From Vicinamibacteria bacterium (GTDB taxonomy: Bacteria > Acidobacteriota > Vicinamibacteria > Fen-336), in the NCBI GenBank assembly GCA_023701125.1, contig JAMPXO010000003.1:32391-96390 (forward strand): DNA of 64,000 nt, read 5' to 3'. Of this stretch, positions 24,129 through 43,977 are shown piece after piece (the stretch's first letter is position 1; every line of letters starts with the position of its first letter). The notes below the pieces were generated by a model that ran no database searches, had not been told where the DNA came from, and worked only from the letters and a program-made list of their open reading frames with translations. The position numbers and the translations under genes are program-made.

Positions 24129-25502
<1,374 letters not shown>

Positions 25503-26741: not shown

Positions 26742-27975
26742 CGCGCGGCTCCCTTCAGCGCCTGCACGGGATGGAGGCGGGCCAGGCGCCACGCCGGGTA
26801 GGCCCCCGACAGCACGCCGAAGAAGACGGCCAGGCCGAGGCCGAGGCCGAACGTGCGCAGGTTGAGGCCCAGTTGCGCGTAGGGGATCAGGCCGCTGTGA
26901 TTGATCGCGGCCAGCACCAGCGGCGCGGCCAGCAGGGCGAGAGCGCCACCCAGCAGCGTGAGCACGACGTTCTCCAGTACGAACTGGCCGACCAGGCTCA
27001 ACGCCGACGCGCCGAACGCCTTGCGTACGCCGATCTCCGGGGCTCGCTCCAGGATGCGGCTGACCGAGAGGTTGACCAGGTTGATCGTCGGCAGTCCCAG
27101 GAACAGCAGGGTCAGCAGGCCCAGAACGCCGACCAGCCGCTCGGGCCGGCTCTCCGCTTCGTCATGGGTGTCGAAGAGCATCCGCGAGGTGCTGGCGAAC
27201 AGGGTCTCGGGCAGCGCCAGGATGCGCTCGAACCCGGGCTCCGCCGACAGGTCGATCCGCTGCAGGCGCGATCGGAACTCGGCCTGGATCTGCGGGAAGG
27301 CCGCCGCGTCGCGGGCCAGCAGGAGCCCCCAGAAATCGCCGCCGAGTTCCTTGCGGTAGGCCTGGTCCTTGGCCGCGGAGTGCGGGACCCAGACGTCGGA
27401 GAACGGCAGGGCCCGCAGCATCGAGACGTCCGCGACGACGCCCATCACGCGGTAGTTCACCCCGTCCACCTCGACGTCGCGGCCCAGCGCTGGAGCGTCG
27501 CCGAAGATCCGCTCGCGTGTGGAACGGTTCAGCACCGCCACCCGCGAGCCCGCCTCGACCTCGGCCTCGGCGAACGGAGCGCCCTCCAGGAACTCGAACT
27601 GGAGGACCCGCCAGTACTCGGCGTCGGTGCGCTTCATGTAGAGCCGGTGCTTCTGGCCGCCCTGGTAGGAAAACGCCTCGCGCATCGTCGAGGTGATCGC
27701 CATCCGCTCGACCCCGGGCAGGTCGCGCGCGTAGCGGTCGAGCAGGCCGAAGCCGGCCGGCGAAGTCGACTGCGCGTTCTTGCCCTCCATCCGGACGTTG
27801 AAGATCAGCAGCGTGCGATCGTGGTGGACCTCCGGCGGGAACGCCCCGAACACGTTGTCGAGCAGCGCCCCGGCCACGATCAGGACGAGCAGGGTCAGCG
27901 CGATGCCGAACAGGCTGATGGCCGTGAACACCTTGCGGCGCTGGAGCACGGCCAGGGCCAGGCGCAGGTGGCTCT

Positions 27976-27982
<7 letters not shown>
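26738..27982 (-). CDS. ABC transporter permease, FtsX/MacB type
   Basis: 'MLKSHLRLALAVLQRRKVF'. Large periplasmic domain plus a C-terminal FtsX transmembrane bundle. Confidence 0.75.
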
Positions 27983-28644
<662 letters not shown>

Positions 28645-28657: not shown

Positions 28658-29902
28658 TCAGCGCAGCCGCAACCGGCGCGCGGTCCCGAAGGCGCTCGTG
28701 TCGGAGACGAGCACCTCCTCCCCCTCCTGCAGTCCTTCGAGCACCTCGATGTGCTCGTAGCTCGCGACGCCCAGCCGCACGCTGCGGCGGCGGGCTTCCC
28801 CGCCTTCGACCACGAACACGTCCTGCACGCCGAGCCCGGTCAGGCCCGGACCGCGCGCGACCCGCAGCACGCCGGCTCGCTGCTCGGTGAGCACCTCGAC
28901 GTCGACCCGCAGATTCGGCCGCAGCGCCGCGTCGCTGGCGTCCTCCAGGGCCACCCGGAAGCTGACCGCCCCGCCCTGCACCGAGGGCTCGACCGCGGCC
29001 ACCGTGCCGGGCAGCGCCCGCTCGCCGAGCCGCACGCGGACGGGCATCCCGGGCCGGAGGACGTTCGCGTGCACGTCCGACAACGTGGCCTGCACGCGGA
29101 ACCGGGTCAGGTCGGCGACCCGGGCCAGCACGTCGCCCGGCCGCACCGTGGAGCCCTCGTCGGTGATCACGAACGTCAGCACCCCCGCCCGCTCGGCGCG
29201 GGCGGTCGCCCGCTGCAGCGTCCGCCACGCCTCGGCCCGCTCCTGGCGCAGGGTGCCGCCCTCGAGCGCGATCTGGCGCAGCCGGGCCGCGGTGCTGGCC
29301 GCCGCGTTCTTCTGCTCGAACTCGAGCTGCGCCACCTCGATCCGGGCCTGGGCGGTCGCCAGCTCGCTCTGCTGCAGCACTTCTTCCGCGATCAGGCCCT
29401 CGGCGTGCAGCTTGCGGTTGCGGGAGAGCTGGGATTCCAGGCTGGCGAGCTGCAGGCCGCGCACGTTGCGCCGGGCCTCGAGGTCGGACTGGGTGCGCTC
29501 GAGGGCCAGTCGCTCGCGCTCCTCGTCGGTCTCGCGCAGCGAAATCTGCTGGTCGAGCCGCTCCACCGCCAGCCGCGCCGGGGCCACGTCCAGTTCCAGG
29601 ATCGGCTCGCCCGCCGCGAGGGTCGCGCCCGGGCGCTTCAGGACGCGGAGCACACGCGCCTCGACAGGGCTGGTCAGGGCCTGCTCCGACTCGGGCAGCA
29701 CCGTCCCGCTGGCGGAGAGCGAGGCCGCGAGATCGCCACGCTCCACCCGCGCGAGCCGGACGCGGTCGCGGGCGATACTCGGTCCGAACCAGTACGGAAA
29801 CGCGAACCAGGCGGTCAGGCTGGCCACGACCACAGCCGCTGCGAGGCGGATGCGGCGGCGGCGCTGGTCAGCGACGAATTCGGCGTCGAGGGGGCGGTCC
29901 AT
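28658..29902 (-). CDS. HlyD/MacA-family periplasmic adaptor (membrane fusion protein)
   Basis: ATG at 29902 ('MDRPLDAEF') within ORF 28658..29965. Transmembrane anchor, long coiled-coil, beta-barrel and lipoyl-like domains. Confidence 0.75.
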   Translation of the reverse strand: MDRPLDAEFVADQRRRRIRLAAAVVVASLTAWFAFPYWFGPSIARDRVRLARVERGDLAASLSASGTVLPESEQALTSPVEARVLRVLKRPGATLAAGEPILELDVAPARLAVERLDQQISLRETDEERERLALERTQSDLEARRNVRGLQLASLESQLSRNRKLHAEGLIAEEVLQQSELATAQARIEVAQLEFEQKNAAASTAARLRQIALEGGTLRQERAEAWRTLQRATARAERAGVLTFVITDEGSTVRPGDVLARVADLTRFRVQATLSDVHANVLRPGMPVRVRLGERALPGTVAAVEPSVQGGAVSFRVALEDASDAALRPNLRVDVEVLTEQRAGVLRVARGPGLTGLGVQDVFVVEGGEARRRSVRLGVASYEHIEVLEGLQEGEEVLVSDTSAFGTARRLRLR

Positions 29903-29962: not shown

Positions 29963-30029
29963 CACTTGTGGCTGATTCCGTGCGCCTTCGGACGAACGGC
30001 CGTCCGGAACCGGACGGCCCGGCCCGAGG

Positions 30030-30773
30030 CTAGCGGGAGCGCTCGATCAAGCGCCTCGAGATCCAGATCGTGCGATGGGTCGCGGTCCAGAAGGTGCCGA
30101 CCGCGATCGCGCCGAGCACGAACAGCGACGGCGTCCCGCTCTGCCAGCCGAAGCGCTCGCACAGCGCCGTGTCGGACAGGCAGACGAGACAGGTGAGCAC
30201 GAGTCGCTCCGCGCGCTGCATCAGGCCCTCCTTGCACAGCACGCCGAGCGACTCGCCGCGGGCCCGCGCGTAGCTGACCAGCAGCGAGCCGGACAGCGCC
30301 GCGGCGGCCACCAGCGCACCGTGCTCGCGGTCGCGCAGGAAGTAGACGAAGCCGAGCAGGCAGAACACCTCGACGAAGCGGTCCAGCGTGCTGTCGATGA
30401 ACTTGCCGTAGTCCGAGTCGAGCTTGCGCGCGCGCGCGATGCGGCCGTCGAGGATGTCGCAAACGCCGCCGGCCGCGATCGCCCAGCCGCCGGCCTCGAG
30501 GTGACCGAGCCCGATGCAGACGCCCGACACCGCGCCGAAGAACAGGCCGGCGAAGTTGAACACGTCGGGCGTCGCCCCCATCGCGAGGAAGAGCCGCTCG
30601 ACCGGCCCGATCACCCACATGAACCAGTGAACCAGGAAGTTGCCCGCGCCGCCCGCGAACTGGGTGTTCTTCTTCGTGGCGTCGGCGTCGCGACCTGCGC
30701 CGGTCAGGGCGAACACGGCCATCGAGGCGAACGCGGTGCCGAAGATGGCGAGAAGGATCTGCAAGCTGCTCAT
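30030..30773 (-). CDS. CDP-alcohol phosphatidyltransferase family protein
   Basis: Canonical D-G-x2-A-R-x8-G-x3-D-x3-D motif ('DILDGRIARARKLDSDYGKFIDSTLDRF') in a polytopic membrane protein. Its ATG directly follows the upstream TAG. Confidence 0.75.
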   Translation of the reverse strand: MSSLQILLAIFGTAFASMAVFALTGAGRDADATKKNTQFAGGAGNFLVHWFMWVIGPVERLFLAMGATPDVFNFAGLFFGAVSGVCIGLGHLEAGGWAIAAGGVCDILDGRIARARKLDSDYGKFIDSTLDRFVEVFCLLGFVYFLRDREHGALVAAAALSGSLLVSYARARGESLGVLCKEGLMQRAERLVLTCLVCLSDTALCERFGWQSGTPSLFVLGAIAVGTFWTATHRTIWISRRLIERSR

Positions 30774-31709
30774 CTACCGTTTCCCCCTGGAGTCCTTGGT
30801 GGCGAAGTAGCGCACGACCCGCGGCCACAGGAACACGAGCGGCCAGCGGCGCTCGCGCGGGGTCAGCTCGATCCGCTGCCCCGTGTGGCGCTCCGCCTTG
30901 CGCACGATGTAATCGAGCCAGTCGTCGAAGGTGACGACGTACTTGGCCCAGCGCAGCGTCGCGCGCAGGCGCGAGCGCTGGAAGAAGATCCACAGCCGGG
31001 CCCGCTCGGCCGAGCCGACCCGCCGCACGAGCGCGAAGCGGCCCGGCGCGACCTCGCGCAGTGCCCCCCGCGCCGCCGCCTCGGCCAGCACCGGGGCGAA
31101 CGCGGGCACCTGCTGCACCCGCTGCGCGTTCCACAGTGCCTCGGCGCGCCCGGCGGGCTCGGGCCGGATCTCGTGCCGCATCGAGACCTGCAGCGCACGA
31201 TGGCAGAACTGCTCGGCGTCGAAGCTCTCCGGCAGCCACGGCCGCGCCCAGTCCAGGGTCACCCGCCGTGCCTCGGCCAGCGCCGTGTCCGCCGCGGTCC
31301 GGGCCTGCTCGTCGGCGGCATAGACGATCGACGCGGGCTGGAACAGCCGCCCCGCGCAGAAGTGGTCGTGGCGGCGTGGCCCGGTCTCGCGCACGAGCGT
31401 CGCCAACTGGATCACCGCGCACTTCGCCGTGCGCTCGCCCGCGCGGACCCGGACCTGGTTGGGCGCCAGTACCGCGTTGATCGAAGCCGCCAGCCCGGGC
31501 GAGCGCCGGTAGGCCCCGGCTCGAACCAGCGCCTCGTAGAACGGGGCGTAGTCGGAGACCGCGACGAAGAAGTCGTAGCCGCTGTGGGGATCCGTCGGCG
31601 TGCCCGTGCGACGCGAGCCGAAGAACACGATCGCCCGCACGGCCTCCCCGCCGACCCGGGCGACCGCCGCGGCGAGGTCGCGCGCGTCCGGGGCCACCTC
31701 GCCCACCAT
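30774..31709 (-). CDS. Tam41/Mmp37-like nucleotidyltransferase (putative CTP:lipid-phosphate cytidylyltransferase)
   Basis: Real start 'MVGEVAPDARD' in the second half of ORF 30774..32582. NTase-fold motif 'FFGSRRTGTPTDPHSGYDFFVAV' and a later 'AKCAVIQLATLVRE' resemble eukaryotic Tam41 ('FGYGSGVF...DIIL', 'VKYGVVSMETLLKD'). The family call is by eye. Confidence 0.5.
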   Translation of the reverse strand: MVGEVAPDARDLAAAVARVGGEAVRAIVFFGSRRTGTPTDPHSGYDFFVAVSDYAPFYEALVRAGAYRRSPGLAASINAVLAPNQVRVRAGERTAKCAVIQLATLVRETGPRRHDHFCAGRLFQPASIVYAADEQARTAADTALAEARRVTLDWARPWLPESFDAEQFCHRALQVSMRHEIRPEPAGRAEALWNAQRVQQVPAFAPVLAEAAARGALREVAPGRFALVRRVGSAERARLWIFFQRSRLRATLRWAKYVVTFDDWLDYIVRKAERHTGQRIELTPRERRWPLVFLWPRVVRYFATKDSRGKR

Positions 31710-31714
31710 CGCGC

Positions 31715-32548
31715 TCAGGCCGGAAGCGCGGGCTGACCCGCCGCCGCGCCGCCCTCGGGCTCGCGGCCGCGCATCTGCGCCAGGTGCGCCCGCATGCGGG
31801 CCTCGATCTGCTCCACGAACGCCGGCAGCACCGCGGGGTCCGTCGGCGCCTCGAGCACCGCCGCGACCTCGGTCCGGCCGCGCAGGTGGTGGACGTTGGT
31901 GACGAAGTCGACGAAGGTGCGCGCCTTCCAGAAGCCGTCGGTGACGACCAGCGTGACCGGGGCGCCGGGCTGCTCGCGCAGGATCGCCAGCAACCCGCCC
32001 GTGCGGAAGCCGCCGAGCTCGCCGTTCTTCGTCCGGTGCCCCTCGGGGAACAGCGCGAAGGTGCGGGCCTGGGTCGCGGCCAGCCGCGTCAGCAGGTCGA
32101 CCGCGCCGCGCGCGTCGCGCTTCGGGTCGATCCTGGGCCCGTCGATCAGCCAGATGCCGCCGCCGACCAGCGGGACGTACCAGTGCCCGTAGCGCTGGCG
32201 GGCGATGAAAGCCGGGATCGCCGGGCTCGCCATCAGGCTCAGCGCGGGGATGTCGAGCAGCGACTGGTGGTTCATCACGACCAACCCGCGGCCGCGGGTG
32301 TCGACCTGGCCGACGCGGACGAAGCGGGCGCCGCCCAGCTTGAAGAAGAAGAAGATCCCGGTGCACGTCATGCGGAAGTACCAGAGCGCGATCCGCGACC
32401 GCCAGCCGGGCAGCAGCGCGCAGAGCGGGATCGCGAGCAGGTACATGATCGGCCCGCACGGGAACGCCATCCAGCTCAGCACGAGCAGGAACGAGACCGC
32501 GCTGCGGACCTGACGCAGGCGTTCGACGAACGACACGCCAGCCGTCAC
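31715..32548 (-). CDS. PlsC/LPLAT-family acyltransferase
   Basis: GTG at 32548 (GTGA overlap with the kinase stop). Acyltransferase motifs 'NHQSLLD' and 'FPEGHRT'. The upstream 120 codons of ORF 31715..32905 are an artefact. Confidence 0.75.
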   Translation of the reverse strand: MTAGVSFVERLRQVRSAVSFLLVLSWMAFPCGPIMYLLAIPLCALLPGWRSRIALWYFRMTCTGIFFFFKLGGARFVRVGQVDTRGRGLVVMNHQSLLDIPALSLMASPAIPAFIARQRYGHWYVPLVGGGIWLIDGPRIDPKRDARGAVDLLTRLAATQARTFALFPEGHRTKNGELGGFRTGGLLAILREQPGAPVTLVVTDGFWKARTFVDFVTNVHHLRGRTEVAAVLEAPTDPAVLPAFVEQIEARMRAHLAQMRGREPEGGAAAGQPALPA

Positions 32549-33438
32549 GGGACCAGCACCTCCAGCGCGGCCGGCTCGACATGCACGTCGAGGGTGTCTG
32601 CGTGGGCGCGGTTCCACTCGCCGTCCGTCTCGTAGGTCGGCGCCGTCTCGAAGCGCAGCCTGAGCCGCGCGGGCTGGCCCATCTTCACGTCGGGCGCCTG
32701 CTCGTGGGTCCCGCGCAGCAGCTTGCCCATCAGCGAGAGCCGACGACCGAGGCCCATGTTGGCGAAGGCGACCGAGTCCAGCCGGCCGTCGCCGAGGTCG
32801 GCCCCGGGCGCAATCTTGAAGGCGCCGCCGAACACCCGCGCGTTGGCGACGATCAGCATCAGCAGGTCGTGGGCCTGCTCGGGCTGGTCGTCCGCGGTGA
32901 TCCACACCCGGAAGCCCGGGAAGTTCCGCAACTGGCGCAGCGCGCAGTACAGGTAGAGCAGGTCACCCTGCAGCCGGGTCACCGTCCACGAGTCCTCGAG
33001 CACGGCGACATCGAAGCCGAACCCGAGCACGTTCAGGAAGCGCTTGCCTTCGACGACGCCGACGTCCACGCGTCGCGTGCGTCCCGCGGCCAGGATGTGC
33101 AGGCACTGCCGCAGGTCCTTGCCCGGGATGCCCAGCGTCTTGACGAAATCGCAGCCCGTGCCGCCGGCGATGAAACCGAGCCGGGTCGGCTTGCCCGCCT
33201 CGAGCACGCCGTTCGCCGCATTGCCCCAGGTGCCGTCGCCGCCGACCGCGACGATCGTCCCGAAGCCCCGCGACGCCGCTTCGCGCGCCAGGCGACGCTC
33301 GTCGCCCGGCGCCTCGGTCAGGCCGTGGTCGACCTCGAAGCCCTGCGCGCGCAGCCACGAGGTGACCGGCTCGATGAGCGTGGCGCCGCGCCCCTTGCCG
33401 GAGCGCGGGTTGAACACGACGTAGTAGGACGCGGCCAC
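32545..33438 (-). CDS. DAGK_cat/LCB5-family lipid kinase (YegS / sphingosine-ceramide kinase-like)
   Basis: Glycine-rich loop 'VAVGGDGTWGNAANG' plus the C-terminal YegS-like domain. Confidence 0.75.
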   Translation of the reverse strand: MAASYYVVFNPRSGKGRGATLIEPVTSWLRAQGFEVDHGLTEAPGDERRLAREAASRGFGTIVAVGGDGTWGNAANGVLEAGKPTRLGFIAGGTGCDFVKTLGIPGKDLRQCLHILAAGRTRRVDVGVVEGKRFLNVLGFGFDVAVLEDSWTVTRLQGDLLYLYCALRQLRNFPGFRVWITADDQPEQAHDLLMLIVANARVFGGAFKIAPGADLGDGRLDSVAFANMGLGRRLSLMGKLLRGTHEQAPDVKMGQPARLRLRFETAPTYETDGEWNRAHADTLDVHVEPAALEVLVP

Positions 33439-33466
33439 GCGAACGTCCGTCGACGCGCCCGCCCGC

Positions 33467-34135
33467 TCAGGCCGTCTGCAGCGTGAGCAGCGGGTCGAAG
33501 GTCTGCTTCCCGTTCCGCATCCAGATCTCGCGGAACGGCATCGTCGCGACCTCGCCGATCGACAGCGCCCGGTTGAAGGGATGGTCGTGCAGGACCAGCG
33601 CCCCGGTCTCTTCTTCGTGCTCGCTCTGCTCGCCCTGCATCACGATGTTGGCCTGGTAGGCCCCGGAGTCGTCCTTCATGAAGGACTGGTAGAGCTGGTC
33701 CACGGGCTGCCAGGAGTGCTCGCCGATCGACAGGTCCGCGAGCGGCGTGCCGTCGAGGGTGACCTTCGCCGCGAGCGCGCGCTCGGCGCGCACCCACTCG
33801 ATGCCGACGTCCTCCATCCAGTGCGGCAGGTGCCAGCGCTCGATCGCGTGCTCGCGCGCGGCCCGGGTCGTCGTGCCGACCATGTAGGGGTACAGCGCGA
33901 ACTTGGGCAGCCGCTCGCCGGCCTTGACGATCGGCGCGACCATCACCGACATCACGACCTCGCCGTAGGGACCCACCGAGCTCTGGTCGAAATCGAAGCA
34001 GGTCATCGCGAAGATCGACGTGCCGTGGTGCAACTCGGCCAGTTGCAGGTGATCGGGCACGATGCGCCGCGCGTTCTCGGTCGGAAACTCGAAGAAACCG
34101 GCGATGACGTCGGCGTAGCCGTAGACGGTCTTCAA
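33467..34135 (-). CDS. hypothetical protein (possibly acetoacetate-decarboxylase-like fold)
   Basis: In-frame C-terminal 222 codons of ORF 33467..35296, whose N-terminal half overlaps the SPT-like gene out of frame. TTG start at 34135 makes a TTGA overlap with the SPT-like stop. The family guess is weak. Confidence 0.4.
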   Translation of the reverse strand: MKTVYGYADVIAGFFEFPTENARRIVPDHLQLAELHHGTSIFAMTCFDFDQSSVGPYGEVVMSVMVAPIVKAGERLPKFALYPYMVGTTTRAAREHAIERWHLPHWMEDVGIEWVRAERALAAKVTLDGTPLADLSIGEHSWQPVDQLYQSFMKDDSGAYQANIVMQGEQSEHEEETGALVLHDHPFNRALSIGEVATMPFREIWMRNGKQTFDPLLTLQTA

Positions 34136-35415
34136 CGGATGATGCCCTCCTCGCGGAGCACGCCCGCGATGACGTGAACGGCCGTCTCGAGATCCTCCTC
34201 GCTGTGCGCCGCCGAGACCGAGACGCGAAGCCGCGACTTGTGCTTCGGCACGGCCGGGTAGGTCACGGGCTGCAGGAACAGGCCACGGTCCTGGACCTTC
34301 TCGGCGACCGCGAACACGCGAGCGTCGTTGTTGACCATCACCGGCATCACCTGCGAGGTCGACTTGCCGATGTCGACGCCTTCCTCCGCGAAGCGGCGGC
34401 GCAGGTAGGCGACGTTCGACCACAGCTTGGTGCGGAGCTGCGGCTCGGACTGGGCGATGCGCAGGCCGGCCAGCAGCCCGGCCGCGACGGGCGGCGCCAG
34501 GTTGCAGGAGAAGAAGCGCGAGCGGCCGAAGGCGTTGACGTAGTCGATCAGGTCGCGGCTGCCGCACACGAAGCCGCCCTGCCCGCCCAGGCTCTTGGAG
34601 AACGTGCCGAGGTGGAAGTCGATCTCGTTGTCGAGCCCGAAGTGCTCCGCCACGCCGCGGCCGTTGGGGCCGAACAGGAACGTGGAGTGCGCCTCGTCGA
34701 TCAGGATGCGAGCGCCGTGGCGCTTGGCCACCTCGACGATCTCGGGCAGCACGCAGACGTCGCCGTCCATCGAGTAGACGCCCTCGACCACGACCAGCTT
34801 CTTGCCCTTGGCCTTCTGCAGCTTGCGCTCGAGGTCGAGCGGGTTGTTGTGGCGGAACCAGAGCGTGTTCGACTTGGCCAGGATCGCGCCGTCGACGATC
34901 GACGCGTGCGAGTACTGGTCGAGGATGATGTAGTCGCCCGAGCGCATCAGCGCGGCGATGAAGCCCACGTTCGCCGAGTAGCCGGTCGGGAACAGGATCG
35001 CGGCTTCCTTGTCCTTGAACTCGGCCATCTCGCGGGCCAGGTCGAGGTGGACCTGCAGGGTCCCGGACAGCATCGGGGAGCCCGAGGCGCCCAGGCCGTA
35101 GAGGTTGGTGGCATCGATCGCCGCCTGCTTGACCTCGGGCCGGTAGGAGATGCCCAGGTAGTTGTAGGAGGCGAGGTTGATCAGGTCCTGGATGCGGCCG
35201 GTCTTGCGGTTGCGGACCCTGACCCGGGACTCCGGGGCGGTCTGCAGCGGCTCGGAGTAGAGGTAGTAGCCGTTCGGCAACGCCTCGCGATACCACTCGT
35301 TGAACGGACCGAGCAGGTTCAGCGGGTCGTCGCCCGCGCCGTAATAGAAATTGCTGTAGTCGTACTCGGCGAACGTCGACGACTTCCCGGGGTCCTTGCC
35401 GTGGACCGGATCCAT
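34132..35415 (-). CDS. alpha-oxoamine synthase, serine palmitoyltransferase-like
   Basis: ATG at 35415 ('MDPVHGKDPG'). 'FGPNGRGV', 'EGVYSM' and the PLP-lysine motif 'GTFSKSLGGQGGFV' match Sphingomonas SPT ('GTFSKSVGTVGGFV') better than KBL/BioF ('GTLGKALGGASGGY'). Confidence 0.75.
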   Translation of the reverse strand: MDPVHGKDPGKSSTFAEYDYSNFYYGAGDDPLNLLGPFNEWYREALPNGYYLYSEPLQTAPESRVRVRNRKTGRIQDLINLASYNYLGISYRPEVKQAAIDATNLYGLGASGSPMLSGTLQVHLDLAREMAEFKDKEAAILFPTGYSANVGFIAALMRSGDYIILDQYSHASIVDGAILAKSNTLWFRHNNPLDLERKLQKAKGKKLVVVEGVYSMDGDVCVLPEIVEVAKRHGARILIDEAHSTFLFGPNGRGVAEHFGLDNEIDFHLGTFSKSLGGQGGFVCGSRDLIDYVNAFGRSRFFSCNLAPPVAAGLLAGLRIAQSEPQLRTKLWSNVAYLRRRFAEEGVDIGKSTSQVMPVMVNNDARVFAVAEKVQDRGLFLQPVTYPAVPKHKSRLRVSVSAAHSEEDLETAVHVIAGVLREEGIIR

Positions 35416-35545
35416 AGGGCGGTCTCCTTGTGCGCCACGCACCACCGGCACGCGGCAGCGGGATTCTACCAGCCCCGGCCAGCGGCCGGAAGCGCCCACT
35501 GCGGCAAATCGCCGGACGGCTTGGACTTGCGGCGCAGGGAATGCG

Positions 35546-36343
35546 TCAGCGCGGTCGGAACAACTCCCCCGCCAGGCGCCGGGTCAGGCTGCGTGGCACC
35601 AGCGACTGGGCCGCCACGGTGAGCCGGTTCTGCAGGCCGGGGATCACGACCAGGGTCCCCCGCTCCAGGCCGGCGAGCGAGGCGGCCACCACGTCCTCGG
35701 GAGGACTGGCCGGGGTCTTGTCGAACAGCACCTTGTCGGTGCCGGCGACCTGCTGGAACTCCGTCTTGATGTTCCCGGGACAGAGCGCCTGGACGCGGAC
35801 GCCGGTCCCCTCCAGCTCCACTGCCAGCGACTCGGTGAACGAGAGCAGAAACGACTTGGAGGCGGCGTAGACGGCGAAGAACGGCACCGGCTGGAACGCG
35901 GACATCGACACCACGTTGACCACCCGGCCGCGACCGCGGGCGGCCATCGCCGGCACCAGCCGCGCGCACAACTCCACGGTGGTCCGCACGTTCAGGTCGA
36001 TCACCTCCAGCGACGCTTCGACGGGACGTTCGACGAAACGGCCCGTGTCGCCGCGCCCCGCGTTGTTGACGAGCAGGTCGATCTCCCGACCCCGCTTGCC
36101 CAACTCGGCCTCCAGCCGCGCGGGGCCTTCGGGTCGGGCGAGGTCCAGGGTGATGACGTCCACCTGGTCTGCCCCGCCGAGTTCCTCCTGCAGAGCCCTC
36201 AGCCGTTCGACCCGCCGGGCCACCACCACGACCCGCTCGCCGCGGCTGACCAGGGCGCGCGCGAAGGCGGCGCCGATCCCGCTCGACGCGCCCGTGACCA
36301 GCGCCCAAGGCCCGTCCGCCGACTTGTTTCGCCCTCGCGCCAT
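35546..36343 (-). CDS. classical SDR oxidoreductase (3-ketodihydrosphingosine reductase-like)
   Basis: 'MARGRNKSADGPWALVTGASSGIG', 'NNAG' and 'YAASK'. It is the in-frame part of ORF 35546..37183. ORF 35466..36371 is the wrong frame. Confidence 0.75.
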   Translation of the reverse strand: MARGRNKSADGPWALVTGASSGIGAAFARALVSRGERVVVVARRVERLRALQEELGGADQVDVITLDLARPEGPARLEAELGKRGREIDLLVNNAGRGDTGRFVERPVEASLEVIDLNVRTTVELCARLVPAMAARGRGRVVNVVSMSAFQPVPFFAVYAASKSFLLSFTESLAVELEGTGVRVQALCPGNIKTEFQQVAGTDKVLFDKTPASPPEDVVAASLAGLERGTLVVIPGLQNRLTVAAQSLVPRSLTRRLAGELFRPR

Positions 36344-36517
36344 GCCGCGTCCCTCTTCGGCGAGCGCCCACCCGGAACCGCGGGTCCGTCGCGCTCGTCG
36401 CGGGGCGACAATAGCAGACGGTCCCGCGGGCTTTAGGCTATGCTCCGCCTTCCGCCGCGGGCCGTCGGCCCGGGTACCAAGGGCGCCCCGAAACCGAAGA
36501 GACCTCGAAGACCCGCA

Positions 36518-37624
36518 ATGGCCAACCTCGCCGCCGCCAACGTGATGCACCGCAAGACCCGGACCCTCGTCTCGGTGCTGGCGGTGGCGATGGAAGTCGC
36601 GATGGTGATGGTGCTGGTCGGGCTGGCCAGCGGCACCCTGGGCGAGATCGCCGACCGCCTCCAGAACGTGGGGGCCGACGTGCTGTTCCAGCCGCCGGAC
36701 GCCTCGCTGCTGCTGGGCGCCACGGCCGCCGTGATGCCGGTGAAGTACATCGACATCATGAAGACCGTCCCGGGCGTGGTCGAGGCCACCCCCGTGCTCA
36801 ACTGGCACGTCTCCAAGGTCAAGGGCGAGACCCGGGCGATCAACCTGTGGGCGATCGACTACCCCTCCTTCACCCGCATCTCGGGCGGCTTCGACCTGCT
36901 CGAGGGCCGCGGCCTTGAGCAGCCCCACGACCTCGTGATCGACACCGTGCTGGCCAACGCCAGCGGCCTGCAGGTCGGCGAGGCGATGCCGATGATGAAC
37001 CGCGAGTTCCGCGTCGCCGGCATCTGCCGCGCGGGCGCGGGCGGCCGGCTGTACGCCCGCATCGAGGACGTGCAGGAGGCGATCGGGGAGCCGGGCAAGG
37101 CCTCGTTCTTCCTGGTCAAGGGCACCGACTCGAAGCAGGCCGACGCGCTGGCGCAGGCGCTCCAGGAGAAGTTCAAGGGCCACAAGATCACGCCCGTCGC
37201 CCAGGTTTCGAGGGCGATGCAGGAGAACGCGATCGGCCTCCAGCAGTTCAAGGAAGCGCTGACCGGGATGGCCGTCATCATCTCGTTCATGGTGGTACTG
37301 CTGGCCATGTACACCACGATCATCGAGCGCACCCGCGAGATCGGCATCCTGCGCGCGATCGGCGCGACCCAGGGCAAGGTCGTGCAGTACGTCGTGGCCG
37401 AGAGTTTCCTGATCTGCCTGGCCGGCGTGCTGCTCGGCAACGCACTGGCGGTCAGTGCGCAGTGGCTGCTACCGAAGATTTTCCCGATGCTGAACATCGC
37501 CTTGAGCCGCGAGTGGGCGCTGATCGCCGCCGCTCTCGGCCTCGTCGGCGGGCTGCTCGGCGCGATCTACCCTGCGATCAAGGCCGCCCGCCTCGACCCC
37601 GTGCAAGCACTCAATTTCGAGTAA
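36518..37624 (+). CDS. FtsX-type ABC permease (LolE/MacB-like) with no cognate ATPase nearby
   Basis: ATG at 36518 ('MANLAAANVMHRKTRTL'). Four transmembrane segments plus a periplasmic domain. Confidence 0.7.
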   Translation: MANLAAANVMHRKTRTLVSVLAVAMEVAMVMVLVGLASGTLGEIADRLQNVGADVLFQPPDASLLLGATAAVMPVKYIDIMKTVPGVVEATPVLNWHVSKVKGETRAINLWAIDYPSFTRISGGFDLLEGRGLEQPHDLVIDTVLANASGLQVGEAMPMMNREFRVAGICRAGAGGRLYARIEDVQEAIGEPGKASFFLVKGTDSKQADALAQALQEKFKGHKITPVAQVSRAMQENAIGLQQFKEALTGMAVIISFMVVLLAMYTTIIERTREIGILRAIGATQGKVVQYVVAESFLICLAGVLLGNALAVSAQWLLPKIFPMLNIALSREWALIAAALGLVGGLLGAIYPAIKAARLDPVQALNFE

Positions 37625-37654
37625 CTCCGAAAAGGACTTGGCCCCTTTCAGCTC

Positions 37655-38269
37655 ATGAAACTTCTCAATACCCTGATCGAGAAGGTCTCCGACCACCCGG
37701 TGCTGTTCATCTTCTTCCGGGCGATCCTGGAGAACGATTTCAAGGCGATCCGTGCGGTGATCCGGCGCGAGTTGAACCTCGGCCCCGGCCAGCGGACCCT
37801 GGACCTCGGCTGCGGGCCCGGCGCCTTCTCGGACCTGTTCGAGAAGCACGACTACGTCGGCGCCGACCTCAACAAGCGCTACATCGACTACGCCCGCGAG
37901 CACCGCCGCGGCACGTTCATCGCCTCTGACGCGCGCAAGGTGGACCTGCCGGACGCCCGCTTCGACCAGGTGCTGATCTTCGGCCTGCTCCACCACCTCT
38001 CGGACGAGGACACGCGGGCCGTGTTGTCGGAGGCGCGGCGCATGGTCGTCCCCGGCGGCGTGATCCTGGCGATCGAGGACATCCCGGCCCAGCATCGGCT
38101 CAACCTGATCGGCCACCTGCTGCACGCGATCGAGAACGGCGAGCACATCCGCCCGACCGCGGACTACAAGGGGCTGTACGCCGAGGCCGGCACGATCGAA
38201 CTCGAAGAAGAACTGCGCAGTGGCGTCTGCGACTACTACGTCGCGCGGATTCGCACGCCCAGGGTGTGA
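37655..38269 (+). CDS. class I SAM-dependent methyltransferase
   Basis: Motif I 'TLDLGCGPGAF' and motif II 'DQVLIFGLLHHL'. Confidence 0.7.
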   Translation: MKLLNTLIEKVSDHPVLFIFFRAILENDFKAIRAVIRRELNLGPGQRTLDLGCGPGAFSDLFEKHDYVGADLNKRYIDYAREHRRGTFIASDARKVDLPDARFDQVLIFGLLHHLSDEDTRAVLSEARRMVVPGGVILAIEDIPAQHRLNLIGHLLHAIENGEHIRPTADYKGLYAEAGTIELEEELRSGVCDYYVARIRTPRV

Positions 38270-40266
38270 GCGGCCGGCGCCTCGCCGGCACGCTGGCCTG
38301 GGCGCTCGCCGCCGCCGTGCTGGCGGTCGCCGGCCTCGCTGCGGGGTTGCGGCAGGCGCGCCCGCTGGTGCTCGACCTGGGGCCCAACGACGCGGCGCAA
38401 CTTGCCGGCTTCCGCGAGGACTGGGAGCGCGAGGGATCGGTCGCGTTCCGCTGGACGACGCTGCGCTCGGAGGTGCGCTTCCCCTTCGCGCTCGCCGAGC
38501 CCGGGGGCCGCGTCGTACTCCGCTATCGGCGCCACTTCGACGACCCCGCTCGGGTGCGCATCGTCTCCGCGGGCGCCACGGTCGTTCAGTTCGAGGCCAG
38601 GGCCGATCGCAAGAGCCCCTACCTCGAGCTCGAGGCTCCGCTCGGCGCGACGCGCGGGCCGCTCACGCTGGTGTTCGAGTCCCACGTCACCAACGAGCGC
38701 CCGCTGGGCATCGCTCTCGACTGGGTGCGGGTCGAAGGCCGAGGCGGCTACCAGACGACGGGAAGCCTGTCCGTCGCGGTCGCCCTGCTGGCGGCAGGCA
38801 CCGTGTTGCTCGTCGCGGCCGCCGGGGCTCCGGCCCTCCCGGCCGCGGCGGCCGGATTGCTGGTTGCGGCGGCGATCGGACTGGGCGGCTGGTGGGACCC
38901 GATGGCACTGGACCGGATCGTCCAGGGCGGCCTGGCGCCGTGGCTGCTCACGGGTGCGGCTGCGGTCCTGCTGCTCCGGGCGCGGCCGTCCTCGGCCTGG
39001 CTGCGTGTCGAAGTCGCGCACCGGCCCGCGCTGCTCGCGCTGGCCCTCGTGGCGCTGGCTGTGCGGCTCGTGCTGGTGCTCCACCCCCGCTTCTACTACC
39101 CGGACGTGCGCACCCATGCGCTCTTCGCGGGACAACTCGCCCGCCACGGGCTCGAGCGCTTCTTGCAGGGCTTCACCGAGAACCAGTTCCGCTACTCGCT
39201 GGGCATCCAGCTCGAGGGCGATCACTGGTACGCGTTCCCCTACCCGCCGCTGTTCTACGTCTTCGCCCAGCCCCTGATCGGATTGTTCCGCCTCGCGCCC
39301 GAGCTCGCCGTCTCGGCGCTGCCGGCGATGGTCAACGCGCTCGAGGTGCTGCTCGTCTACGCGCTCGCCCGTCGCCTGGCGGCCGTCGCGCCGCTGCGCG
39401 CCGCGGCGCTCGTGGTGGTGCTACCGATCTTCCTGGCCCGGGCGTCGCTGGCGCTCTTCCCCGCCCTGGTCGGCCATGCCCTCGATACGTTGCTGCTGGT
39501 CTGCCTGCTCGACCTGTTCCAGGCCGCGCGCCCTCGCGTCCGCAGCGGGGTCGTGTCGGGCCTGCTGCTGGCGACGGCCTTGCTGGCGTACACACAGGGC
39601 GTCCTGAACTTCGGCCTGCTGCTGCCGCTGGTGCTGGCCTGGGATTTTTTCGCGGACCGCACGCCGACGGGCCGCGATCGGCAACGGGCTCTGCTGACCG
39701 CGGGCGTCCTCGGTGTGACGCTGGCAGCCGGGCTCTTCTACGCGCGCTACGTGCCGGTGTTCGTGGACATGCAGCGGGGCATCCCCCAGCCCGAGGAGCG
39801 CATCTGGCTGGAGTTGCAGGAGCGGCGGGCGCTGCAGGGGGACGACGATCAGCCCGAGGAGCCCAACGACCCCTACGCCGCCCCGACGTTCGAGGCCACC
39901 CGGGGGCTGGCCAAGGCGGGCTCGCGCTTGTGGATTTTCTGGGGCCCGTTCGCGCTCCTGCTACCGGTCGGGGTGGGACTACTGGCCGCGGGCGAAGCCG
40001 CGGCCAGCCGGCGCTTCCTGATCGCGTGGGCCAGCCTCTACATCGTGCTGAACTTCGCATCCGGCAGCCTGCCCGGCCCGAACCTCTTCCGCCACAGCAA
40101 GGACGTCGAGGTCGTCGCGCCGCTCTGCGCGCTCTCTCTCTCTCTCGCCGGCTCCGGGCCCCGCTCGCGCCTGGCGTGGCGCGCGGTATGGATGGCCTTC
40201 GTCGTCTACGCAGCCTGGCGAGTCGTCGAGATCTACGGGCGCATCACACCCGCTCCGTTGCCCTAG
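38266..40266 (+). CDS. large polytopic membrane protein (putative GT-C glycosyltransferase / DUF2723-like)
   Basis: GTG at 38266 (GTGA overlap). An N-terminal extracytoplasmic domain of about 180 aa is followed by at least 12 hydrophobic helices ('FPYPPLFYVF'). Confidence 0.5.
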   Translation: MSGRRLAGTLAWALAAAVLAVAGLAAGLRQARPLVLDLGPNDAAQLAGFREDWEREGSVAFRWTTLRSEVRFPFALAEPGGRVVLRYRRHFDDPARVRIVSAGATVVQFEARADRKSPYLELEAPLGATRGPLTLVFESHVTNERPLGIALDWVRVEGRGGYQTTGSLSVAVALLAAGTVLLVAAAGAPALPAAAAGLLVAAAIGLGGWWDPMALDRIVQGGLAPWLLTGAAAVLLLRARPSSAWLRVEVAHRPALLALALVALAVRLVLVLHPRFYYPDVRTHALFAGQLARHGLERFLQGFTENQFRYSLGIQLEGDHWYAFPYPPLFYVFAQPLIGLFRLAPELAVSALPAMVNALEVLLVYALARRLAAVAPLRAAALVVVLPIFLARASLALFPALVGHALDTLLLVCLLDLFQAARPRVRSGVVSGLLLATALLAYTQGVLNFGLLLPLVLAWDFFADRTPTGRDRQRALLTAGVLGVTLAAGLFYARYVPVFVDMQRGIPQPEERIWLELQERRALQGDDDQPEEPNDPYAAPTFEATRGLAKAGSRLWIFWGPFALLLPVGVGLLAAGEAAASRRFLIAWASLYIVLNFASGSLPGPNLFRHSKDVEVVAPLCALSLSLAGSGPRSRLAWRAVWMAFVVYAAWRVVEIYGRITPAPLP

Positions 40267-41859: not shown

Positions 41860-41888
41860 CTCGTCAAGGCTGGAGAACGTGCAGGAGC

Positions 41889-41919
41889 GGATCGTAGGGG
41901 ACTCGATCCGTGGGGTCAA
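41889..41919 (-). promoter_or_regulatory. sigma-70-like promoter for parAB
   Basis: The minus strand reads 'TTGACC', a 17-nt spacer, then 'TACGAT'. Confidence 0.35.
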
Positions 41920-41934
41920 GGGGAGAAGGCACCC

Positions 41935-42426: not shown

Positions 42427-42488
42427 GCAGTCCTCCGCTCGGCAATATAGGCGGGCCGGAAGTGAGCGTCAATGAAGTGTTTGCGGGT

Positions 42489-42510
42489 CATTGTCGGCCG
42501 GCCGACAATG
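42489..42510. repeat. perfect 22-bp palindrome 'CATTGTCGGCCGGCCGACAATG' (candidate operator)
   Basis: Read directly from the sequence. It lies in the BFN/parA upstream region. Confidence 0.6.
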
Positions 42511-42572
42511 ACGGGAATATCGAGGCAGGACAAGGCTTAAGCCAAATACCCATGAGGTGTTACGTGAGAGGA

Positions 42573-42590: not shown

Positions 42591-42603
42591 CGGGCCGAAG
42601 CCC

Positions 42604-43932: not shown

Positions 43933-43977
43933 CCGGCCCGCTCCCGAAAAAATGCTGAATTGATCAAAAGGTAGGCG

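Follow-up and report, generated by a model that had tools for sequence, protein, structure and literature searches.

Within the window, a stretch of 64,000 nucleotides from a Vicinamibacteria MAG of an uncultured soil acidobacterium, seven genes form an operon on the minus strand between positions 30030 and 36343 (Table 1). A preliminary description of this DNA had placed seven same-strand genes in this span, and this is borne out by the coordinates, by an independent gene caller that returned the same seven genes on the public contig (identical sequence) and by a strong coding signal, with a GC3 of 0.91–0.97 in the called frame of all seven genes at a genome GC of 72%. Successive genes, from the SDR to the CDP-alcohol transferase, are separated by 130, -4, 28, -4, 5 and 0 nt, and they are translationally coupled. 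Two of the three 4-nt overlaps described earlier are present, TTGA at 34132–34135 between the genes for the alpha-oxoamine synthase (AOS) and the ADC-like protein and GTGA at 32545–32548 between those for the kinase and PlsC, whereas the third, TAG/ATG at 30771–30776 between the Tam41-like and CDP-alcohol transferase genes, is an abutment with zero overlap. Downstream of the last gene lies a hairpin whose surrounding region (29975–30035) has a fold energy of -36.2 kcal/mol (z = -3.0 versus shuffles); it possibly marks the 3' end of the operon or stabilises the mRNA, although a U-tract is absent and a simple terminator scan makes no call there.

Table 1. Genes of the operon, in order of transcription, and the hairpin behind it.
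Feature	Position	Strand	Properties
SDR	35546-36343	minus	265 aa, ATG start, first gene of the operon
AOS (alpha-oxoamine synthase)	34132-35415	minus	427 aa, ATG start, AAGGAG upstream
ADC-like protein	33467-34135	minus	222 aa, TTG start
Lipid kinase	32545-33438	minus	297 aa, GTG start
PlsC	31715-32548	minus	277 aa, GTG start
Tam41-like	30774-31709	minus	311 aa, ATG start
CDP-alcohol transferase	30030-30773	minus	247 aa, ATG start
Hairpin	29998..30019	minus	9 bp, G+C-rich, begins 11 nt past the last stop codon

Family assignment of the encoded proteins

The seven family assignments made earlier were all correct or could be improved. Pfam searches recovered adh_short, Aminotran_1_2, DAGK_cat with YegS_C, Acyltransferase and CDP-OH_P_transf, while Mmp37 gave no hit and ADC stayed under its gathering score. 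The AOS matches PF00155 (Aminotran_1_2, 4.5e-55) and contains all PLP motifs quoted for it before, namely GTFSKS (270–275, with the PLP lysine K274), FGPNGRGV (248–255) and EGVYSM (211–216), as well as DEAHS (240–244) and the motif SYNYLG (83–88), which is invariant in 54 orthologues and presumably resembles motifs of S. paucimobilis SPT and LCB2/SPTLC2. Its orthologues within Vicinamibacteria are ~80% identical. Among all solved structures, the AOS is, judged by sequence scores, nearest to bacterial serine palmitoyltransferases (SPTs), those of S. multivorum (300 bits) and S. paucimobilis (254 bits), followed by ThAOS (246), ALAS (230), KBL (216), CFAT (208), BioF (190) and CqsA (120 bits). 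The claim that it is SPT-like rather than BioF- or KBL-like holds to this extent, but it passes no cut-off of the curated NCBIfam SPT models: its best match, SerpalmtaseCFB, reaches 362.7 bits, under the cut-off of 640, and the KBL and bioF models give 329 and 354 bits, both under their curated cut-offs as well.

The SDR, a classical short-chain dehydrogenase/reductase (PF00106 adh_short, 1.3e-49; TGASSGIG at 17–24, NNAG at 93–96, YAASK at 159–163), has its best NCBIfam match in mycolate reductase, at 158 bits well under the cut-off of that model, and is a candidate 3-keto (3-ketosphinganine-type) reductase. In 24 Acidobacteriota-type loci an SDR gene directly precedes that of the AOS. Its place is taken in 10 loci of other phyla by a Zn-dependent dehydrogenase (Zn-ADH) whose gene is coupled behind that of the kinase; this Zn-ADH is nearest to the 2-amino-3-hydroxy/3-keto enzyme L-threonine 3-dehydrogenase (best NCBIfam match, 112 bits, under cut-off). 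This non-orthologous replacement of the reductase argues that a keto-reduction step is needed.

The kinase is assigned by its sequence matches to the soluble lipid kinases of the DAGK_cat / YegS-BmrU-DgkB family (PF00781 DAGK_cat, 1e-29; PF19279 YegS_C, 5e-23; TIGR00147, 155 bits, above the cut-off of 118.65); it carries GGDGT at 66–70, and among solved structures it comes closest to DgkB and BmrU (about 80 bits), then to YegS (about 60 bits). PlsC, an acyltransferase of the LPLAT type, matches PF01553 (Acyltransferase, 7.8e-14), contains the HX4D motif as NHQSLLD (93–99) and FPEG (167–170), and is closest to the solved T. maritima PlsC 5KYM (2e-8).

The Tam41-like protein of the window has no Pfam match and no NCBIfam match. 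The lack of an Mmp37 hit had been named before as a result that would refute the proposed pathway; we retain the Tam41 assignment because of a Tam41 fold match and because relatives of the protein lie above the Pfam Tam41_Mmp37 threshold. A Foldseek search with its AF2 model (pLDDT 87.7) returned the Tam41 structures 6ig4, 6ig2 and 7ecd on top (E about 1e-7, TM 0.52–0.68, about 275 columns), the next matches being at E about 1e-3 and TM 0.28. The family member P0421, with which the window protein shares 31% identity (E 9e-40), reaches 34.9 bits on PF09139, where the gathering score is 24, and the PF09139 threshold is passed by 7 of 10 distant family members tested as well as by P0366; the family comprises 1055 representative clusters at E<=1e-3. 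The protein is thus a remote Tam41/Mmp37 homologue by fold and transitive homology, with a conserved amphipathic C-terminal region, and a candidate CTP:lipid-phosphate cytidylyltransferase.

The CDP-alcohol transferase (PF01066 CDP-OH_P_transf, 4.8e-13) has the motif D106xxDGxxAR...GxxxDxxxD131 intact. Its highest NCBIfam scores are those for archaetidylinositol-phosphate synthase (120 bits), BT1523-type PIPS (110) and PIPSynth (96), IPCT/DIPPS is matched weakly (46.8 bits; 4MND 8.5e-6), and the PgsA and PssA models give about 20 bits; the PIPS-type and PgsA/PssA scores are all under their cut-offs. The closest solved structures are the PIP synthases of R. salmoninarum and M. tuberculosis, and S132, R155 and R195 of MtPIPS correspond to S167, R190 and R234, which do not vary among 39 orthologues, so that both arginines binding inositol phosphate are conserved. 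On these comparisons the enzyme is of the inositol-phosphate-using (PIP / archaetidylinositol-phosphate synthase) type, and the head group, for which glycerol, inositol, serine or ethanolamine had been proposed, can be narrowed to an inositol-phosphate-type acceptor. Since this clade takes both CDP-DAG and CDP-archaeol, a third lipid moiety is plausible.

The 222-aa protein had been described as having an unknown fold, which is not borne out. It reaches 23 bits on PF06314 (ADC; gathering score 29.8), and Foldseek with its AF2 model (pLDDT 76.7) returned exclusively structures of the ADC superfamily (3cmb, 3bgt, 4zbt, 3c8w; E 1e-9 to 1e-7, TM about 0.6) before a next match at E above 0.02, by which the predicted structure has an acetoacetate-decarboxylase (ADC) fold. 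Across phyla the protein has no conserved lysine, and the catalytic one is absent: the expected Schiff-base site reads W101-H-L-P-H105-W, and a His/Glu cluster is conserved.

Conservation of the gene neighbourhood

Conservation was assessed in 61 analysable loci with enough flanking DNA, which were fetched through the Tam41-like gene and of which every carrier is a MAG. The check for a conserved neighbourhood in related genomes was strongly positive: the core is syntenic across Acidobacteriota, Gemmatimonadota, Latescibacterota, Krumholzibacteriota and Eisenbacteria, phyla that are mostly uncultured, and the arrangement is far beyond chance. The Tam41-like gene, by which the loci were fetched, and the ADC-like gene occur in all 61 loci, the kinase and the CDP-alcohol transferase in 60 each, the AOS in 55 and PlsC in 52. 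The kinase gene always adjoins that of the ADC-like protein, and the AOS is linked to the module of kinase, Tam41-like protein and CDP-alcohol transferase in one operon or in two divergent operons. Across phyla, two different gene orders both keep it in translational coupling with the genes for the ADC-like protein and the kinase. A fatty-acid/sphingolipid-type hydroxylase (PF04116) lies beside the cluster in two loci.

PlsC is fused to the Tam41-like protein in five separate 50%-identity clusters, once in full operon context (L085), and the Tam41-like protein to the CDP-alcohol transferase in one cluster. These fusions argue that the module enzymes catalyse consecutive steps and support the "phosphorylate, CMP-activate, transfer" module proposed earlier. 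In a distant clade a DAGK_cat kinase and a Tam41_Mmp37 protein are paired without AOS or CDP-alcohol transferase, from which it follows that this couple predates its association with the AOS.

A proposed route and its alternatives

We give an about even chance to the reading that the operon specifies a non-canonical inositol phospholipid by a self-contained route, in which the hydrophobic backbone too would be made by enzymes of the operon itself. The most likely product would be inositol phosphoceramide, formed via a CDP-ceramide-like intermediate, with the steps following the order of the genes. The SPT-like synthase would condense an acyl thioester with serine to a 3-keto long-chain base, which would be reduced by the SDR or, in other phyla, by the Zn-dependent dehydrogenase. 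The YegS/DgkB-type kinase would phosphorylate the C1 hydroxyl of the long-chain base or of its N-acyl form, the PlsC-type enzyme would acylate a lysophosphatidate-like intermediate to a ceramide-1-phosphate-like phosphatidate analogue, and the Tam41-like enzyme would transfer CMP from CTP to yield a CDP-ceramide-like liponucleotide. From this and myo-inositol-1-phosphate the PIP-synthase-like transferase would form ceramide-phosphoinositol phosphate, to be trimmed by an unlinked phosphatase to inositol phosphoceramide. The ADC-fold protein would be an obligatory partner that may present the lipid to the soluble kinase or may supply the missing N-acylation step. A donor other than the bulk CDP-DAG of CdsA is suggested because it would otherwise make little sense for the operon to have its own kinase, PlsC and CDP-lipid synthase. 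What we infer here are all the substrates, whether phosphorylation precedes acylation, whether the acyl chain goes onto N or O, and inositol as the head group; the earlier sphingolipid interpretation as a whole is partly supported. Several observations count against its strict form: PF01553 enzymes are known as O-acyltransferases and not as N-acyltransferases, and we know of no precedent in which a long-chain-base phosphate is N-acylated; a local AOS is missing from six Gemmatimonadales loci and PlsC from nine Acidobacteriota loci; and no gene for an inositol-phosphate synthase was found within the window.

The strongest competing reading, quite possible if not our preferred view, is a dedicated glycerolipid branch made up of the kinase, PlsC, the Tam41-like protein and the PIP-synthase-like enzyme, which would lead from DAG or MAG via PA, CDP-DAG and PIP to PI. 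In this branch the kinase would be a DAG or monoacyl/alkyl-glycerol kinase and the Tam41-like protein a true CDP-DAG synthase, and a long-chain base would be produced apart from it by AOS and reductase. As is the case in Bacteroides and yeast, ceramide would then receive the phosphoinositol of PI through an unlinked enzyme of IPC-synthase type, with the DAG so released being recycled by the kinase. The characterised relatives of all four module enzymes act on glycerolipids, with Tam41 using PA, a membrane lipid phosphate (PMC7018664), PIPS using CDP-DAG, DgkB/YegS being the nearest kinases and PlsC O-acylating, and in Bacteroides PI-dihydroceramide arises from PI-DAG via BT_1522; the six loci without local AOS and the distant kinase–Tam41 pair also fit. 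However, the conserved neighbours include neither an Aur1/BT_1522-like (PAP2) gene nor one for a ceramide synthase or a PIP phosphatase, there would be no explanation for another PlsC and another CDP-DAG synthase if bulk PA and CDP-DAG are at hand, the ADC-fold protein and the tight AOS–ADC–kinase coupling are left without a role, and in 55 of 61 loci, across phyla, the module is accompanied by the AOS.

An improbable alternative is of Kennedy type, in which the Tam41-like protein would cytidylylate a soluble phospho-alcohol, for instance inositol-1-phosphate to CDP-inositol, and the CDP-alcohol transferase would place the phospho-head group on ceramide or DAG, in likeness to Caulobacter CpgD (CDP-glycerate) or the proposed Prevotella-type CDP-inositol route. 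Besides these precedents, the weak IPCT/DIPPS match and the fusion of one distant Tam41-like protein to an NTP_transf_3 domain speak for it. Against it stand the Tam41 fold with its membrane-lipid-phosphate substrate and the amphipathic C-terminal region, the different fold of the soluble-substrate cytidylyltransferases known so far, the kinase, PlsC and PlsC–Tam41-like fusions that would be left roleless, and the two conserved phosphate-binding arginines, which fit Ins-1-P as acceptor and not as donor. Very improbable is that AOS and reductase are a catabolic pair of KBL/threonine-dehydrogenase type, or makers of another oxoamine such as capnine or a CAI-1-like signal, fortuitously beside a phospholipid operon: the resemblance of the Zn-ADH to L-threonine 3-dehydrogenase and the KBL and bioF scores of the AOS would agree with this, but these AOS scores all lie under curated cut-offs, CFAT, KBL and CqsA are clearly worse solved relatives than the SPTs, in both gene orders the AOS stays coupled to the genes of the ADC-like protein and the kinase, and the window reductase is an SDR and not a Tdh.

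The preferred route to an inositol phosphoceramide had been thought undescribed, in agreement with which no description of a CDP-activated sphingolipid was found in the searchable literature. Among known systems, the head group of bacterial sphingolipids comes from a soluble CDP-activated donor in the case of CpgD, and a CDP-inositol route has been proposed in Bacteroidetes (Heaver et al.); the operon described here combines an enzyme of the kind that starts sphingolipid synthesis with a predicted module for phosphorylation, CMP activation and attachment of inositol phosphate.

Organization of the operon and its surroundings

Gene calling in the window places seven co-directional genes between positions 30030 and 36343 on the minus strand, encoding in order a reductase of the SDR type, an alpha-oxoamine synthase (AOS), an acetoacetate-decarboxylase-like (ADC-like) protein, a lipid kinase, a PlsC-type acyltransferase, a Tam41-like protein and a CDP-alcohol transferase. 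The same seven products result when genes are called independently on a public contig of identical sequence. Over this region the window is identical to a MAG assigned to Vicinamibacteria (Acidobacteriota), and its Tam41-like protein shows 100% identity to NDJ94_01320 (Vicinamibacteria bacterium) at NCBI. The G+C content of the window is 72%, and GC3 in the called frame amounts to 0.91-0.97 for each of the seven genes. The spacings in gene order are 130, -4, 28, -4, 5 and 0 nt; of the three 4-nt overlaps listed in the preliminary description, TTGA and GTGA are present, while at TAG/ATG the two genes abut with zero overlap. Behind the last stop codon of the operon lies a strong G+C-rich hairpin (z = -3.0). 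Scans for promoters and terminators found neither a sigma-70-like promoter nor an intrinsic terminator in or around the operon, and no Rfam element was detected there. Pfam searches of most remaining ORFs of the window returned no MIPS, CdsA, bCerS-like GNAT, PAP2/Aur1-like enzyme or PIP phosphatase.

The features of the window are listed in the table. In about 11-14 loci of the Vicinamibacteria type, the divergently transcribed trio of permease, methyltransferase and 666-aa membrane protein (36440-40266) adjoins the operon, and the trio may act in modification or export of the lipid; the MacAB-like arrangement downstream is common only to the two closest relatives (loci L002 and L003). The housekeeping blocks contain parB, parA, a DUF151-like nuclease gene, miaB and recN, a Tol-Pal cluster with TolQ/R/A-like proteins, TolB and a YbgF-like TPR protein, and rpoN together with lptB- and lptA-like genes; most of the names are given by eye, Pfam having been applied to the TolB- and YbgF-like genes. 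With these blocks the organism appears to be diderm with an LPS transport machinery.

Features of the window; for the operon genes, the number of loci carrying each is given out of the 61 related loci with sufficient flanks
Feature	Position	Strand	Loci (of 61)	Remark
CrtC-like lipocalin protein	269-1084	+		PF07143, PF17186; at the window start
Second FtsX-permease/ABC-ATPase pair	9330-11217	-		assigned by eye
BtpA-family gene, then PfkB-family sugar kinase	11508-13253	+		BtpA: PF03437, 2e-61
Histidine kinase	21592-22905			beyond the MacAB-like set
Sigma-54 response regulator	24129-25502			beyond the MacAB-like set
MacB_PCD/FtsX permease	25530-26792	-		MacAB-like set
MacB_PCD/FtsX permease	26738-27982	-		MacAB-like set
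ABC ATPase	27976-28644	-		MacAB-like set
HlyD/RND-adaptor protein	28658-29902	-		MacAB-like set, directly downstream of the operon
G+C-rich hairpin	29998-30019
CDP-alcohol transferase	30030-30773	-	60
Tam41-like protein	30774-31709	-	61	gene used to fetch the loci
PlsC-type acyltransferase		-	52
Lipid kinase		-	60
ADC-like protein	33467-34135	-	61	222 aa
Alpha-oxoamine synthase	34132-35415	-	55	427 aa
SDR		-
MacB/FtsX-type permease	36440-37624	+		divergent from the operon
Class I SAM methyltransferase	37655-38269	+		divergent from the operon
666-aa polytopic membrane protein	38266-40266	+		divergent from the operon; no Pfam/NCBIfam match
Housekeeping block	40263-50632
Housekeeping block	61316-63945

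Predicted functions of the encoded proteins

The first gene encodes an SDR (PF00106, 1e-49) with the TGxxxGxG, NNAG and YxxxK motifs. The AOS matches PF00155 (4.5e-55) and contains the PLP lysine K274 within GTFSKS, D240 and H243 within DEAHS, and SHAS at 169-172; these PLP residues align to K244, D210, H213 and H138 of the SPT from Sphingobacterium multivorum, and 54 orthologues share SYNYLG (83-88) without variation. In phmmer comparisons with PDB sequences the SPTs of S. multivorum, S. paucimobilis and S. wittichii reach 300, 254 and 243 bits, as against ThAOS (246), ALAS (230), KBL (216), CFAT (cysteate-C-fatty acyltransferase, 208), BioF (190) and CqsA (120), so that by this ranking of pairwise scores, which is not a phylogeny, the AOS is nearer to characterised SPTs than to KBL, BioF, ALAS, CqsA or CFAT. 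The curated SPT models are not passed (score/cut-off 362.7/640 for NF047600, 335/500 for NF047599 and 272/670 for NF047603), and the bioF (354.5) and Kbl-like (350.7) models score almost as high as the best SPT model. These results point to a separate SPT-like clade with a predicted specificity for serine and long-chain acyl donors.

The kinase matches both PF00781 and PF19279 (DAGK_cat and YegS_C), contains GGDGT at 66-70 and scores above the family cut-off of TIGR00147 (155.1 vs 118.65), which identifies it as a bona fide YegS/BmrU/DgkB-family lipid kinase with a predicted lipid substrate. The PlsC-type protein exceeds the PF01553 cut-off (52.1 vs 23 bits) and has the HX4D motif as NHQSLLD (93-99) and FPEGHR (167-172); equivalog models are not passed (AGP_acyltrn 36.6 vs 103).

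The 222-aa protein, previously described as of unknown fold, belongs structurally to the ADC superfamily: its AF2 model (pLDDT 76.7) retrieves only ADC-superfamily structures in Foldseek (E 1e-9 to 1e-7). The Pfam ADC model remains sub-threshold (23.1 vs 29.8), and a sequence-profile search of the PDB with the family gave no matches. At the position expected for the Schiff-base lysine (K115 of the clostridial enzyme) the protein reads R94...R100-W-H102-L-P-H105-W, and no lysine is conserved across phyla (at >=95% of 30 orthologues); a conserved His/Glu cluster is present. The loss of the catalytic lysine is provisional, since the mapping is based on a weak 42-column hhalign alignment to a sequence which we take to be that of the clostridial enzyme.

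The Tam41-like protein of the window has no Pfam or NCBIfam match of its own, and a PDB sequence-profile search gave none either. The top five Foldseek matches of its AF2 model (pLDDT 87.7) in the PDB are all Tam41 (E 1e-7 to 3e-6), with a TM-score of up to 0.68 over about 275 columns, which cover almost the whole protein, vs 0.28 for the next match and with just 12-13% identity to the solved Tam41 structures. The modelled architecture is that of Tam41, with an NTase and winged-helix core and a C-terminal membrane-binding region (PMC7018664). One of 28 close homologues matches PF09139 (E 1.6e-4). The family profile retrieves 1055 representative clusters, and relatives passing PF09139 are reached by the profile of the window protein at E 1e-35 to 1e-97. 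The Tam41_Mmp37 gathering score of 24 bits is passed by seven of ten sampled family members at greater distance, and also by P0366 (P0421 34.9, P0476 33.1, P0366 29, P0467 27.1, P0457 26.4, P0494 26.1, P0452 26.0 and P0504 25.3 bits); the window protein is 31% identical to P0421 (BLASTP E 9e-40). The fold match and these relatives together indicate a remote member of the Tam41/Mmp37 superfamily with predicted cytidylyltransferase activity. The assignment of the preliminary description thus holds through the fold and the Pfam-positive distant relatives, and not through a direct Mmp37 match.

The last gene product matches PF01066 (4.8e-13) and has an intact D1xxD2GxxAR...GxxxD3xxxD4 motif (DILDGRIARARKLDSDYGKFIDSTLD at 106-131). 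The NCBIfam models for archaetidylinositol-phosphate and PIP synthases score 120, 110 and 96 bits vs about 20 for PgsA/PssA, all three below their curated cut-offs (119.8/180 for NF040950, 109.8/350 for NF052561 and 96.1/170 for NF045883), and the best solved sequence matches are actinobacterial PIP synthases. Residues S132, R155 and R195 of MtPIPS, which bind the phosphate of inositol-1-phosphate (PMC4634129), correspond to S167, R190 and R234 in the alignment to 6H53 and are invariant in 39 orthologues; the equivalent of K135 is R170, and Q in nine sequences. By these matches the transferase groups with the archaetidylinositol-phosphate and phosphatidylinositol-phosphate synthases.

Conservation of the cluster and the proposed pathway

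Scanning GTDB species genomes with the Tam41-like profile yielded 143 loci. Among the best 80 of these 143, all carriers are MAGs, from Vicinamibacteria and other Acidobacteriota, Gemmatimonadota (Gemmatimonadaceae, Gemmatimonadales, Longimicrobiales), Latescibacterota, Krumholzibacteriota and Eisenbacteria, besides three bins labelled Gammaproteobacteria. A homologue search starting from a Gemmatimonadaceae copy retrieved nothing but proteins from MAGs and metagenomes, with no named cultured strain among them. The gene neighbourhood, whose comparison in related genomes the preliminary description had suggested, is conserved in several phyla (61 loci). Acidobacteriota have a single operon, SDR-AOS-ADC-kinase-(PlsC)-Tam41-like-transferase, and the other phyla have two divergent operons, [AOS-ADC-kinase(-Zn-ADH)] and [PlsC-Tam41-like-transferase], likewise with overlapping stop and start codons. 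An SDR adjoins the AOS in 24 loci and is replaced non-orthologously in ten by an MDR Zn-dehydrogenase, whose best NCBIfam match, sub-threshold, is L-threonine 3-dehydrogenase.

The Tam41-like domain also occurs in fusion proteins (P0361, P0362, P0366, P0367, P0372, P0416, P0378, P0387, P0500, P0404). PlsC-Tam41-like fusions were found in five separate 50%-identity clusters, one of them in full operon context (locus L085), a Tam41-like-CDP-OH fusion once, and Tam41-like-P450 fusions, followed by a CDP-OH gene, in two clusters; further partners are NTP_transf_3 (L087, in an unrelated ketosynthase/cyclase context) and a YegS_C fragment. Six Gemmatimonadales loci have no AOS within 10 kb (L061, L066, L067, L071, L073, L075) and retain the ADC-like protein, kinase, PlsC, Tam41-like protein and transferase, and in nine Acidobacteriota loci no PlsC lies between kinase and Tam41-like gene (L016, L019, L021, L023, L030, L033, L034, L037, L041). 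In a distant clade (L091, 5788-7703) a DAGK_cat gene overlaps a Tam41_Mmp37 gene that is Pfam-positive, and the vicinity of the pair contains neither an AOS nor PlsC or a CDP-alcohol transferase; the couple of kinase and cytidylyltransferase is therefore older than its linkage to the AOS.

In many Vicinamibacteria the operon starts with a further gene ahead of the SDR, which encodes a radical-SAM protein (e.g., L004 4368-5423, L010 4257-5318, L021 4997-6025); the family occurs in 16 loci, is absent from the window and has weak matches far under the cut-offs to PqqE, MoaA, Tes and HpnH. In L085 (2731-3456) and L007 (about 5446-6063) the SDR is missing and a fatty-acid-hydroxylase-superfamily gene (PF04116), from the family of sphingolipid C4- and alpha-hydroxylases, lies beside the AOS.

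The cluster is read most economically as one pathway that follows the order of the genes and whose substrates are all predicted. An SPT-like condensation by the AOS would be followed by keto reduction and by phosphorylation of the C1 hydroxyl by the kinase; the lysophosphatidate-like intermediate would then be acylated, activated with CMP by the Tam41-like enzyme to a CDP-ceramide-like liponucleotide, and transferred to inositol-1-phosphate to give ceramide-phosphoinositol phosphate, so that the whole route would exactly parallel the series LPA, PA, CDP-DAG and PIP. This reading is favoured because the AOS stays linked to the module across phyla and gene orders, because the fusions order acyltransferase, cytidylyltransferase and transferase, because, with ordinary CDP-DAG as the donor, the operon would not need a kinase, a PlsC and a CDP-lipid synthase of its own, and because the PIPS/AIPS clade already tolerates differing lipid moieties; moreover, the replacement of the SDR by a Zn-ADH argues that the keto-reduction step is needed. 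We tentatively propose, at somewhat less than an even chance, that Vicinamibacteria, Gemmatimonadota, Latescibacterota and relatives produce inositol phosphosphingolipids in steps that mirror those of glycerophospholipid synthesis: phosphorylation of a long-chain base, its acylation by the PlsC-type enzyme to a ceramide-1-phosphate-like lipid, conversion of this lipid to CDP-ceramide by the Tam41 homologue, and coupling to inositol-1-phosphate by the PIP-synthase-like enzyme.

Since every characterised relative of the module enzymes works on glycerolipids, PF01553 enzymes are to our knowledge O-acyltransferases, and loci lacking PlsC or a local AOS as well as the distant kinase-Tam41_Mmp37 pair exist, the main rival is a dedicated glycerolipid branch that leads from DAG/MAG through PA and CDP-DAG to PIP, with PI feeding an unlinked IPC synthase as in Bacteroides. 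We consider it less likely than not. The conserved neighbours include no Aur1-like gene, ceramide synthase or PIP phosphatase, and this scheme leaves the ADC-like protein without a role. Such a branch would be the first case known to us of a bacterial Tam41-type CDP-DAG synthase working with a PIP synthase independently of CdsA. The Tam41 fold, the kinase and the fusions agree poorly with a Kennedy-type route in which CDP-inositol is the donor, as with CpgD or in the route proposed for Prevotella. A catabolic KBL/Tdh-type pair for amino acids is unlikely and was rejected as the primary explanation, the score ranking and the translational coupling standing against it. Also rejected as primary were a biotin BioF, a CqsA-type autoinducer, and capnine/sulfonolipid synthesis, in view of the lower CFAT score and because such a pathway would not need the kinase.

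Bacterial sphingolipid synthesis has been worked out recently in few cultured lineages, Caulobacter, Bacteroides and Porphyromonas, and the attachment of head groups is still largely open. A full-text literature search found no mention of a CDP-activated sphingolipid (CDP-ceramide, CDP-sphingosine), and literature searches gave nothing relevant on Tam41 in bacterial sphingolipid synthesis or on sphingolipids in Gemmatimonas, Vicinamibacter, Luteitalea or Longimicrobium. Should the inositol phosphosphingolipid pathway be true, major soil phyla would join the sphingolipid producers, CDP-ceramide would be a liponucleotide absent from the searched literature, and inositol phosphoceramide would be reached in a second, convergent way by reusing the PA to CDP-DAG to PIP logic on a different backbone. 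A bacterial Tam41 clade would obtain its first assigned role and an ADC-fold protein, provisionally without its catalytic lysine, a new one, so that two unannotated protein families would gain a function, the Tam41-like one with roughly a thousand representatives when clustered at 50% identity. The gene cluster is widespread, being kept in several abundant, mostly uncultured phyla that dominate in soil or live in sediment.

Relation to known systems

The operon merges elements of all four closest systems in an arrangement described for none of them and thereby sets familiar enzyme chemistries into a pathway of new architecture, whose substrate class may be new as well. In Bacteroides thetaiotaomicron inositol sphingolipids are made by the SPT BT_0870 and the cluster BT_1522-BT_1526, which encodes IPC synthase, PIP synthase, PIP phosphatase and MIPS, and phosphoinositol is moved from PI-DAG to ceramide by an Aur1-like enzyme (Heaver et al. 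2022, PMC9246714). Common to both are an SPT-type synthase and a PIP-synthase-type CDP-alcohol transferase using inositol phosphate, as is predicted here (110 bits on the BT1523 model, under the family cut-off of 350), and likely also the end-product class, inositol phosphoceramide. Unlike the Bacteroides system, the window operon has no linked Aur1/PAP2-like gene, MIPS or PgpA-like phosphatase, but contains a lipid kinase, PlsC, a Tam41-like cytidylyltransferase and an ADC-fold protein.

The anionic sphingolipids of Caulobacter crescentus depend on the ceramide kinase CpgB, CpgC, CpgA and CpgD, a CTP:phosphoglycerate cytidylyltransferase (PMC10331486, PMC12275187). Both systems have a soluble DAGK_cat-family kinase, acting on sphingolipids in Caulobacter, and a CTP-dependent cytidylyltransferase, a predicted one in the window operon, in one head-group pathway. 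However, CpgD has an IMPCT/NTP-transferase fold and activates the soluble head group (CDP-glycerate), whereas the window enzyme has the Tam41 fold, and the Caulobacter pathway has no counterpart of the CDP-alcohol phosphotransferase and PlsC of the window operon. Ceramide is made in Caulobacter by Spt-bCerS-CerR, and bCerS- or CerR-type genes are not linked to the window operon; that a GNAT-type ceramide synthase is missing, as initially noted, is borne out among the Pfam-annotated window genes and the conserved neighbours of related loci. A kinase for the step proposed here before acylation exists in Porphyromonas gingivalis, where the DAGK_cat-family dihydrosphingosine kinase dhSphK1 phosphorylates the free long-chain base, according to the passage on it in PMC10331486; the reactions are likened by description, and the nearest solved relatives of the window kinase are DgkB, BmrU and YegS.

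With the Tam41/Mmp37 CDP-diacylglycerol synthases of yeast mitochondria and Firmicutes (7ECD) the window protein shares the NTase, winged-helix and C-terminal helices, and the same chemistry, transfer of CMP from CTP onto a lipid phosphate, is predicted for it. Unlike known Tam41, its genomic partners are an AOS, an ADC-fold protein, a kinase and a PIPS-like enzyme, and its substrate may be other than phosphatidate. Finally, the transferase shares the CAPT motif and the S/R/R residues with M. tuberculosis PgsA1, R. salmoninarum PIPS and archaeal archaetidylinositol-phosphate synthase, whereas it has an extra N-terminal segment of roughly 50 residues, and its donor is predicted to come from the Tam41-like enzyme rather than from bacterial CdsA or from CarS.
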